Under the pieces are notes generated by a model. The model was not told where the DNA came from and searched no databases. It saw only the letters and a program-made list of their open reading frames with translations. Both the position numbers and the translations under genes were made by a program. DNA of 64,000 nt from Candidatus Latescibacterota bacterium (lineage in GTDB: Bacteria > Latescibacterota > UBA2968 > GCA-2709665). Every line of letters starts with the position of its first letter. The first letter of the stretch is position 1. This document shows positions 2,545 through 8,307 of this stretch, in pieces. The stretch covers positions 5,312,001 to 5,376,000 of the forward strand of contig OZ220733.1 in assembly GCA_965116875.1 (NCBI GenBank). Direction: 5' to 3'.

Positions 2545-3242
2545 GATTACGCTCCTTCAGGGACTTCCGATATTTCCTGGTCGCATTCCGCACTTAATAC
2601 ACAATGCCAATATAGATTATTGGCTCTCCCGGTGCAAGGTATTCGAGAGTTCGAAAGTTGATACCTTCAGGAATGTCGCCCGACCGACGAGTTCCAAATC
2701 AGACGCCGCTGTGGGAACGCCTGTGGTTTTGAAGGGCGTCGACGATGCACTGCTGTCCAAGAACCGCGGGATTCCTGGAGATGACGTTCGAAAAGTGGAT
2801 TCCTTTCGCGATTATGGACGGCTTTGACCTCGACAACGAAAACCGGGTTGCCATGGGTTCGCGTCTGTTGCAGGGCTTCTCATTCTGAACGGAGTCGAAG
2901 CATCGTTCGCCGCTTCCGTACCGCGCTGGAGTCGGACGTGCTGCCTCTAGGGCGTCGCCATGTGCAGATCGCGGGGGATGATCCCATGCCGCAGTAGATC
3001 CTTCGTCGGCCTGGGGCTTTCTCTACATGAGAAACTGGTCTCAGGCGAAACGGATGCGATTCCTGGACGTCGCACCCAGGCCTCCTCTGGATGACAGTGG
3101 GAAGCAACGTGCTCGGCTATCAGCCAGCATGTCATTCAGAGCGGAGCGAAGATCTGGCCGGTTCATTTCGCCAATGGTTATTGCAAGTCATGTCATTCGG
3201 AGCGTAGCGAAGAATCTCCCGTCTACTATGTTAAAAGTCAAG

Positions 3243-3630
3243 AGAGAACGACAATTTGTCGGCCTCAGATGCTGGGGTTACTCTGCCATTGTTCGTACCG
3301 ATGCGACGCGTTCATTCCGACACGCTCGACGAGCGTGTCGGAATGAACGAAACAGACGTCATTAAGCCTTGAATGGGTTCCCTGCCACACGACAGCAGTA
3401 GGGACCGGGCGTACGGTGTTCTCTTTTGGATGGCCTCAGATGCTCGGTCAACGCTACCAGTCTACTATTCGTAGTCGCCATTTGCAGGCGCTAACATGCC
3501 ATTTATCCGGAGCCGTGCGAGAGCTGGGGGCGAGCAAACTTCATCGACGTAGTACCTGACGGTCTACAAGACGGGAGGCGCCGTCCCCCGTGCTCCACGA
3601 TCAAGAGCGGTGTGGGCGCAGGCATCTGAT
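3243..3630 (-). ncRNA. putative bridge/seek RNA region of the IS110 element
   Basis: ~400-nt non-coding region downstream of the transposase; 3568-3577 reads CTCCCGTCTT on the minus strand, identical to the reconstructed target, inside a GGGGG/CCCCC-closed internal loop; RNA boundaries inferred. Confidence 0.7.
3309..3349. repeat. perfect 20-bp-arm palindrome
   Basis: CGTTCATTCCGACACGCTCG-A-CGAGCGTGTCGGAATGAACG. Confidence 0.95.
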
Positions 3631-3642
3631 GTGACCGGGTGT

Positions 3643-4713
3643 TCAGCCGGCAAAGAGTCCCAACTGATAGGGCTCTCCATTCAGCAAGATCCTGCGCATG
3701 CGGCAAAGCAGGGATCTGGCAACTCCGACGATGGCGTGTTTACCACCGGCACGAACCCTGATGCGTTCATATTTTTCCTGCATCGCGGGATCTTTCTCGA
3801 TCAGGCGCCAGGCCGCCTGGATGAGTAACGCACGCACCATCGGTTTCCCCTGGCGGGTGATACGCCCGTGCCTCACATGCTCTCCCGACGAGTGCTGGCC
3901 GGGCGTCAGCCCCACGTAGGCCGCCAGCGTCCGTGCGTTTTTGAAGCGCGCCACATCCTGCAGCTCCAGGAGGATCTCCATGGCCGACAGGCATCCCACG
4001 CCCGGGATCGACGTCAGGATGGCCACGCGGTCCCGATACGCATCTGTTTCCGCAAGCTGCCACAGCATCCTCGTCTGGCGATGCACCTGCTCACACAGGT
4101 CAGCGTATTGCTCCAGCATGTTCTCGAAGCTCTCCTGCGCATACGGATCTTCCAGATGCACATCGCCAAGTGCGGTCACGAACTTGCCAGACCACCGCCC
4201 TGTCGATTCTTCGGGCATGTCGATCCCCATATACCGCAACTCGGCCTTGATCCGTAGTTGCACACGCACCCGATCCTTGATGAACTGCCGGCGGCGACGA
4301 CTCACCTGGCGGTGGGATCGCTCTTGAGGCGTTGGCACATAGATCGATGACAAGAGGTCCTTCCTCAGATAATCCGCCAGCTTGAAGCTGTCGATGCGAT
4401 CCGTCTTGACCAGGTTCCCACTCTGGCTCGGGATCAGGCTCGGCGGCGTCACACAAGCATCCACACCCATATCGACGAGAAAATCGTACAGCCCGAACCC
4501 GAAATAACCCGCTTCATACACCGCACAGATCTTCTTCGCTTCGCCGTACCGACTCAACAGCTTATCGATCGCCTCTGTTGTGCCTGCGATGCGATTGGAG
4601 AACAGTCGCAAACCATCCTCGTTGAGAATGGTGATGTGCCACTGCTTCCGATGCATGTCGATGCCCACGAAAAGATCCTTGCCCCGCCACGCTTCAACGG
4701 TATACCTTGCCAT
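3643..4713 (-). CDS. IS110 family transposase/recombinase
   Basis: DEDD RuvC-like motifs FVGIDMH, VYEAG, KTDRIDS; C-terminal SIPGVG...AYVGLTPGQHSSG; ATG 4713 with AAGGAGG. Confidence 0.95.
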   Translation of the reverse strand: MARYTVEAWRGKDLFVGIDMHRKQWHITILNEDGLRLFSNRIAGTTEAIDKLLSRYGEAKKICAVYEAGYFGFGLYDFLVDMGVDACVTPPSLIPSQSGNLVKTDRIDSFKLADYLRKDLLSSIYVPTPQERSHRQVSRRRRQFIKDRVRVQLRIKAELRYMGIDMPEESTGRWSGKFVTALGDVHLEDPYAQESFENMLEQYADLCEQVHRQTRMLWQLAETDAYRDRVAILTSIPGVGCLSAMEILLELQDVARFKNARTLAAYVGLTPGQHSSGEHVRHGRITRQGKPMVRALLIQAAWRLIEKDPAMQEKYERIRVRAGGKHAIVGVARSLLCRMRRILLNGEPYQLGLFAG

Positions 4714-5047
4714 CACGAGCCTCCTTGTGAAAGTGTTTGTTGTGGACAACGGCAAAGTATACTCTCACAAGCTGAGGCTCAACTTCATTTTAACATAGTG
4801 ACTTCTGGCTCGTACGTGTAGCATATGGCCTTCATAGACAAATTCGTGCGCGGACGCTCTGCCAGACTTTCCGCCACCTCTCTATAACATTCGGCCGAAA
4901 GTGTAAAGGCCACATTTCGCCAATGGTTGTGGGCGAATTTTCCATCCGTATATTTCGCACACTTTCGCATCTTTCGTTGGTAACCACACCCGCTTTTGGA
5001 CAGGTGTGTCGACGATGAAAGATGCATTGTAAACAGTAGGCAATAAC

Positions 5048-8115: not shown

Positions 8116-8307
8116 AAGGCCCTCGCGGAAGACGGTACATGAAATGCGGGGAGACGGTAGAGGGAAGACGGGAGAAGAAACCCTTGCCGGGTTTGTTTTT
8201 CCTCCTTGCCTTCGGCTCGAGAAGAAACCTCACATGGCAGGCAATCTCTCCCGTCTCCCGTCTTGCGTCTACCCGCCTTTCGCTGAAGGCTGATCGCTGT
8301 TTCTGGC

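Follow-up and report, generated by a model that had tools for sequence, protein, structure and literature searches.

The 64,000-nucleotide stretch of DNA analysed here (the window) lies on contig OZ220733.1 of Candidatus Latescibacterota bacterium, whose genome is a single 5.45-Mb contig. At 3223-4803 it carries an insertion sequence of the IS110 family with a gene for a DEDD/serine recombinase and, downstream of that gene, a predicted bridge (or seek) RNA with guides that match the site of insertion. Six full copies are present in the genome: the window copy, called W below, and five others, c2-c6, which are 89% identical to W. The coding region and the ends of the element are arranged as follows.

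3223..4803, minus strand: whole insertion sequence, 1579 bp plus one CT core, with ends identical in the six full genome copies
3643..4713, minus strand: recombinase gene encoding 356 aa, stop codon included in the interval, with a DEDD RuvC-like and a Tnp domain (PF01548, PF02371, NF033542)
4788..4799: subterminal inverted repeat at the end upstream of the recombinase, TTTTAACATAGT, after which come GA and the CT core; it contains a -10-like TATGTT (minus strand, 4797-4792)
3225..3236: subterminal inverted repeat of the recombinase-downstream end, ACTATGTTAAAA, with a -35-like TTGACT nearby on the minus strand (3241-3236)

The recombinase matches PF01548 over its N-terminal DEDD (RuvC-like) domain (E 2.8e-20) and PF02371 over its C-terminal Tnp domain (E 4.1e-28), and it scores 222.7 bits with NF033542, the model for "IS110 family RNA-guided transposase", against a cut-off of 140. 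Its top relatives in the PDB are IS621 (E 6.7e-15) and then ISCro4 (E 1.9e-14). Residues D19, D105, D108 and S276-G277 align with D11, D102, D105 and S241-G242 of IS621, which are catalytic (PMC11208158); the IS621 numbering is that of the paper, with an offset of 2 residues assumed for the PDB chain. E67 stands one residue away from the IS621 glutamate, beside a gap in the alignment. The sequence GLTPGQHSSG aligns with GLTPRRYESG of IS621, and the conserved serine motif of IS1111 transposases is given as GL-P----S(T)G (PMC11187229). The similarity to IS621 is low and consists of two local matches only, and the closest plasmid-borne relatives are less than 40% identical. The 356-aa frame is open in all six genome copies.

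A CT core is found at each junction (3223-3224 and 4802-4803), the junctions reading ...CCCGT-CT(3223-3224)-ACTATG... and ...ATAGTGA-CT(4802-4803)-TCTGG. CT stands at both junctions in the six copies and only once at the empty sites, as in an insertion without duplication beyond the core. The inverted repeats are 12 bp long, and the terminal extensions between them and the core measure 0 and 2 nt; a length of 7-17 bp is reported for the subterminal inverted repeats of the IS1111 group (PMC11208160). The non-coding ends measure 88 nt upstream of the gene (4801-4714) and 418 nt downstream of it (3642-3225). Inverted repeats of this length, together with a short upstream and a long downstream end, are marks of the IS1111 group as described in PMC11208160 and PMC11187229. 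The first-pass annotation, made from the letters of this stretch, had placed an IS110/IS1111 element at exactly this interval, and the domains, the inverted repeats and the ends common to six copies bear it out; every sequence string that it cited was found where it had been placed. It had also proposed that excision at the CT core rebuilds GAATCTCCCGT-CT-TCTGGCTCGTACG, and this uninterrupted version does occur elsewhere in the genome, for example at 1790185. Two sequencing runs (X1 and X2) have contigs that pass from 3222 to 4802 with an overlap of 2 letters, which might be taken for excision at the window locus itself. We set this aside, since the shorter side comprises only 22 letters and the likeness threshold was 85%, so that these contigs most likely derive from paralogous empty copies of the repeat. 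In the one run of raw reads (X21) no read aligned here, and reads across a circle junction were not seen.

Within the downstream end, a covariance model built for the family (R1) matches the window at 3451-3597 with an E value of 1e-18. The predicted RNA and its parts, all on the minus strand, are the following.

3451..3598: bridge RNA gene, predicted from the covariance model and from stem covariation, about 150 nt, with a target-binding loop followed by a donor-binding loop
3569..3577: long target guide CUCCCGU-CU, 7 nt plus core, with the same reading as the plus-strand flank CTCCCGT-CT
3548..3568: hairpin between the target guides (U-GUAG..CUAC-G), its pairs kept in 23-24 of 24 sequences, with compensatory changes in one pair
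3539..3542: short target guide GAAG on the 3' side of the loop, made up of the core and 2 nt and complementary to plus-strand CT-TC; relatives have a flank-matching guide at the homologous position
3526..3590: closing stem of the target loop, 3590-3586 with 3530-3526 and 3583-3579 with 3536-3532, with compensatory changes in 9 of 11 pairs
3496..3503: proposed first donor guide AAUGGCAU, in which UGGC would pair with the core-adjacent end sequence with one G-T wobble, followed by a bulged A and U
3476..3490: hairpin of the donor loop, CGCC/GGCG, of only 4 bp in the window copy, whose pairing was drawn by us
3462..3469: second donor guide AAUAGUAG (AAUAGU-AG), in the same sense as the element end CATAGT-AG read in recombinase orientation
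3457..3510: closing stem of the donor loop, CCGG 3510-3507 with CUGG 3460-3457

In the window copy the long target guide matches its target at 9/9 positions and GAAG (3542-3539) at 4/4, core included in both cases. The string CTCCCGTCTT, which the first-pass annotation had named as the target-matching guide (minus strand, 3568-3577), occurs exactly 3 times in the 64-kb window, where 0.14 occurrences are expected and none of 100 shuffles reached 3. The other parts that it had listed for this loop, namely the hairpin GUAG-ACC-GUCA-GGU-A-CUAC, the GAAG and the GGGGG/CCCCC stem, are all present and occupy homologous places of a structure conserved in relatives.

The guides were then compared with the insertion sites of relatives. 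A recombinase scan that used a 4-sequence alignment as query, with one genome per species, returned 58 loci with 32-62% protein identity, and a single-protein scan of the same set of genome contigs found no relative. A match at E <= 1e-30 was present in 5 of 101 related genomes, the window's own included. An exact inverted-repeat search for the ends of the relatives gave mostly chance repeats and was replaced by copy-to-copy boundaries (pairwise blastn) combined with end motifs, by which usable ends were defined in 33 of the 58 loci. All usable relatives share one plan, which in gene orientation reads left flank, AG, T(A/C)ACTATG ... (A/C/T)ATAG-N, AG, right flank. Together with the 6 genome copies, the 33 relatives gave 36 insertions with a right flank, representing 24 guide lineages.

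Over its 7 non-core positions, the long guide matches the flank of its own insertion completely in 18 of the 36 insertions; of the others, 12 have 6 matches, 4 have 5, and one each has 4 and 2. For 23 of the 24 lineages the mean was 6.09/7 with the own flank and 2.14 in the 506 cross pairings, and a total as high as the observed one did not arise in any of 10,000 shuffles. The short guide behaved in the same way, with a mean of 4.17/5 for the own flank against 1.60 for those of other lineages (0 of 10,000 shuffles of the flank assignment reached the observed value). Such covariation of guide and target among homologues had been suggested in the first-pass annotation as a check, and it was found for both guides. 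Close pairs of elements with different guides have correspondingly different flanks (L035/L036, 87% identical; L056/L057, 92% identical), and three elements outside the seed of the model, scored by eye, gave 7/7 (L074), 6/7 (L040) and 6/7 (L076). In L056 (2592-2735) the long target guide ends with AU, not CU, at the core, and the seven non-core bases still match the flank. In two further relatives the RNA region itself is rearranged. The bridge RNA of L038 (2670-3000) is interrupted within the second donor guide by a sequence that opens with a different IS110-like transposase frame, which looks like one such element inserted in the guide of another. In L034 (2773-2880), a second, partial bridge RNA comprising the donor loop only starts exactly at the right flank, which suggests that the element inserted beside or within what is left of a related one.

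The scaffold around the guides was examined in the same 24 sequences. The consensus structure has 23 pairs in 4 helices and two internal loops, and 92.0% of its cells are paired, as compared to 78.7% after shuffling (none of 500 shuffles attained 92.0%) and to 37-44% when the partners were slid against each other. Compensatory changes on both sides were seen in 16 of the 23 pairs, and in 15 of 22 with RNAalifold. The covariance model was built from these sequences. It gave 6 hits in the whole genome, all within the six elements, so that by this search the genome has no orphan RNA gene, and it gave 43 matches among the 65 related loci searched. An Rfam search of the region returned no family above noise, the four matches (E 0.017-10) being to microRNA and cis-regulatory models far below their gathering scores. 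A comparison for handshake guides, which in IS621 favour pairing after strand exchange, set the 2 nt after each second guide against the expected partner. It gave 27/48 in the target loop (shuffled mean 23.8; 240 of 10,000 shuffles as high) and 19/48 in the donor loop (shuffled mean 16.5; 2037 of 10,000 as high), and we do not count this as significant.

The relatives also allowed the donor loop to be assigned, and part of the earlier assignment had to be changed. In the window, ACUACG-AAUAGU-AG spans 3475-3462 on the recombinase strand, and the motif A(C/U)CACG precedes the second guide in both loops of the family. In 38 of 38 elements, the base N of the internal AAUAG-N-AG is the one that the element's own end carries just before its core, in three states (T, C and G). 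The AUAGUAG at 3468-3462, which the first-pass annotation had given as one donor guide, is thereby confirmed. Its other candidate, AUGGCGACU (3481-3473), matches the donor flank ATAGTGACT at 7/9 positions, and by our arithmetic a match of this quality is expected about 0.5 times by chance within the non-coding end of about 410 nt. In relatives the same columns belong partly to the 3' side of the hairpin in the donor loop and partly to the conserved A(C/U)CACG motif, and they show no correspondence with the element end: L050, for instance, holds GUGACUAC where its left end calls for AGCCACU. Because these columns do not track the end, we treat the match as probably due to chance and reject AUGGCGACU as a donor guide. 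It is best replaced by UGGC(A)U at 3501-3496, so the caution that had been expressed over the donor loop was justified, one of the two guides having been exchanged. In this first donor guide, the 4-mer on the 5' side of the loop is complementary to the G of the core and the three bases with which the other end begins; the match is exact in 17 of 24 sequences, with one G-T-type wobble in 4 (the window copy included) and one mismatch in 3, across four end states. Between the 4-mer and the U expected to pair with the core A there is one extra base, and we infer a geometry in which this base is bulged. Discontiguous pairing is described for one donor guide of IS621 (PMC11208160).

An account without any RNA would be that the protein reads the repeat directly, the RNA-like matches being by-products, chance or carried pieces of target. 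The target motif is indeed very common in the genome, where CTCCCGTCT occurs 245 times and CTACCGTCT 159 times, so that a guide-like copy inside the element is less surprising here than it would otherwise be. We nevertheless regard this account as highly improbable. The guide positions change so as to match unrelated targets in relatives, in the proportions given above and even within the close pairs L035/L036 and L056/L057, the stems around them are conserved with compensatory changes, and the donor guide follows its own end in every element compared.

The six copies of the genome provide a comparison at closer range. Among c2, c3 and c4 there are 2-4 pairwise differences in about 1580 positions; c5 has 8-10 differences from them, and c6 is about 95% identical to them. 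W, c4 and c6 occupy sites of the sequence GAATCTCCCGT-CT-TCT(G/C)GCTCG (class A), and c2, c3 and c5 sites of the sequence TCTACCGT-CT-TCCCTCT (class B), within heptad-like repeats. Insertion of other copies at unrelated sites had been named beforehand as an outcome that would speak against RNA guidance; instead, the six occupy two related sequences. The class A context GAAGAATCTCCCGTCTTC is found at 10 empty and 3 occupied sites genome-wide, all the empty ones carrying C at the variable base, and class B has 19 empty sites, of which 10 have A and 9 have C. At its third base (C3575) the guide has C in W and c6 and A in c2-c5; at the corresponding target position, class A sites have C and the three occupied class B sites have A. 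Guide and target thus agree at this base in 5 of the 6 copies, and all three A-guide copies in class B occupy A-allele sites, though 9 of the 19 empty class B sites carry C. The short guide of the c2 type, AGUGAAG, fits class B at 6 of 7 positions, which suggests class B as the proper target of that lineage.

Some features of the target repeats may be recorded here. The class A target is part of a dispersed repeat, about 280 nt long (window 2960-3222 and 4804-4940), which contains two CATGTCATTCA-N-AGCGGAGCGAAGA sub-repeats, and five of the 10 empty class A sites cluster at 1.776-1.793 Mb. The two further exact copies of CTCCCGTCTT in the window are at 8165-8174 (minus strand) and 8255-8264 (plus strand); the former is an empty class B site with the C allele and therefore a potential landing site for the lineage with the C guide.

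When the two ends of the element are joined, they form TTGACT, a 17-nt spacer and TATGTT, in all six genome copies and in 25 of 36 elements overall. A cycle may be proposed on this basis. The recombinase would work with the bridge RNA of about 150 nt encoded just downstream of its gene. CUCCCGU-CU would pair with one strand of the left target half and the CT core, and GAAG with the other strand, over the core and 2 nt; UGGC(A)U and AAUAGU-AG would do likewise with the two ends of the element as they are joined in the excised circle. This circle would then recombine at the CT core and so enter CTCCCGT-CT-TC inside the dispersed repeat. Rare read-through expression would permit excision, and the promoter at the joined ends would raise expression of the recombinase and RNA only after excision, with insertion to follow. 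This cycle matches the junction-promoter logic described for ISEc11 and IS621. By analogy with the work on IS621, ISEc11 and related elements, we infer that the RNA is produced and processed and that the recombinase binds it, that a circular intermediate exists and that the window copy is still mobile.

Several observations weigh against reading this element as an intact, RNA-guided one. The minimum-energy fold of 3645-3430 is no better than that of shuffled sequence (z = -0.18), and the support for the structure is therefore that of comparison, not of energy. The shuffle tests overstate independence, since related lineages share guides by descent (eight share TGGCA-AG), and the guide positions were set by hand in 4 of the 24 lineages, in which the anchors failed. 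The long guide of L049 scores 2/7 and fits only with a shift of 1 nt, and that of the fragment L069 gave only 3/7 by eye. Copy c4 carries an A guide at a C (class A) target and so has one mismatch; it is located 750 bp from c6, which carries the C guide, and tolerance of one mismatch or guidance in trans by the RNA of another element are both possible explanations. The short target guide matches its flank at only 1/5 non-core bases in c6 and 2/5 in W. In W, moreover, the donor hairpin has only 4 bp and the first donor guide must accommodate a bulged base as well as a G-T wobble. A search of the integrated element gave no sigma-70-like promoter. Finally, W is the only member of its sub-lineage, which thus gives no sign of recent movement.

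The points that concern W itself would also fit the possibility that the window copy is an immobile relic, whose guide matches record a past insertion and which no longer forms a working RNA-protein complex: the solitary position at 89% identity to the other five copies, the poor short target guide, the 4-bp donor hairpin with the wobble in its guide, the lack of a detected promoter in the integrated state and also an insert of 171 nt between the RNA and the element end. We consider this unlikely, without dismissing it, for W keeps its open reading frame, its catalytic residues and a long guide with a 9/9 match. Its ends and junction promoter are the same as in the near-identical copies that seem to have moved recently, the insert is common to all six copies, including the closely similar c2-c4, and IS621 naturally works with a right target guide of four bases, its left target guide having 9 (PMC11208160).

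The insert corresponds to the following feature.

3261..3444: segment of 171 nt, present in all six genome copies and bounded by a 13-nt direct repeat (3261-3273 and 3432-3444)

It is absent from relatives, and with its 13-nt direct repeats it looks like an insertion or a duplication. The distance from donor guide to element end is 238-239 nt in the six copies of this genome and 44-120 nt in relatives. Inside the segment, at 3309-3349, there is a perfect hairpin with a long stem, in which copy c5 has a double change from C-G to U-A that preserves the stem; it is not a standard terminator, because it is not followed by a T-run on either strand. A terminator-like hairpin with a T-rich tail is present at 3249-3261 (minus strand), just inside the downstream end and 8 nt before the -35-like box, and could be the end of the recombinase/RNA transcript.

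Compared with IS621 (PMC11208160, PMC11208158), the element has the same combination of DEDD and serine recombinase, the CT core, a target loop that precedes the donor loop, a target in a genomic repeat and a putative promoter rebuilt at the joined ends. Read in the orientation of CT, the 9-base guide has the sense of the left target and the 4-base guide is complementary to the core plus the right target, as in IS621. It differs from IS621 in the position of the RNA, which is 3' of the recombinase gene and not 5', in its subterminal inverted repeats of 12 bp as compared to 2-3 bp in the IS110 group, and in the hairpin that separates the guides in each loop, with A(C/U)CACG before each second guide. 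The core reads AG in gene orientation because gene and RNA are transcribed in the opposite direction to those of IS621 relative to the CT core. This reversed transcription fits the statement in PMC11187229 that the order of the top-strand and bottom-strand matches is reversed between the two families.

The likeness to the seekRNAs of IS1111 elements (ISEc11, ISPa11, ISKpn4 and ISPst6; PMC11187229) extends to the long downstream non-coding region, the subterminal inverted repeats and GL-P----SG, to an RNA of about 80-150 nt with the top-strand match 5' of the bottom-strand match and an overlap at the insertion point, to natural redirection between relatives (ISEc11/ISXne4) and repeat targets (REP for ISPa11), and to a putative junction promoter beside which no other promoter was found. 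By contrast, the recombinase has 356 aa where 330-350 are quoted for IS1111 transposases in that paper, and the window element, whose RNA is predicted from sequence, has no close named relative. ISPpu9 of Pseudomonas putida, with its RNA Ssr9 (PMC12288879), is likewise an IS110-family element in repetitive extragenic sequences with a small-RNA gene downstream of the transposase; extra orphan copies of the RNA gene are described for ISPpu9, whereas the covariance model finds the window type of RNA in this genome only inside the six elements. Since bridge RNAs are predicted in 93% of catalogued IS1111 elements (PMC11208160), one more element with such an RNA was to be expected.

Taken together, the family-wide covariation of guides and targets, the covariation in the stems and the C/A switch within the genome support the core of the first-pass annotation, which had proposed an intact recombinase, RNA guides around a 2-nt core and a repeat as target. 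We conclude, with a probability of roughly 0.88, that the window carries an intact IS1111-group element of the IS110 family, in which a DEDD/serine recombinase is probably served by a downstream two-loop bridge RNA with target and donor guides that direct it to a repeat. The element is a well-supported further example of the mechanism described in 2024 and not a new kind of system. That it may be reprogrammable is suggested only by natural reprogramming among relatives, that is, by the 24 guide lineages with matching flanks and by the C/A switch. More tentatively, and with somewhat less than even confidence, the C/A difference at 3575 may be viewed as a natural experiment on single-base specificity, with c4 as its exception, and the 24 guide sets on a scaffold of about 150 nt as a compact family of programmable recombinases.

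For the family, sequence suffices to read off the four guides, the stems of the scaffold and the predicted junction promoter of this clade, in metagenome-assembled genomes (MAGs) from poorly studied phyla (Latescibacterota, Ignavibacteriota, Desulfobacterota-type, Zixibacteria and Gemmatimonadales). For the annotation of this genome, six insertions are explained and 29 further repeat sites are marked as potential landing sites. The most useful parts are the local C/A switch of guide and target and the uniform scaffold with its 24 natural guide sets: the guide sets are a ready comparison set, and two guide alleles with two target alleles in one genome are a clean natural test of single-base discrimination.

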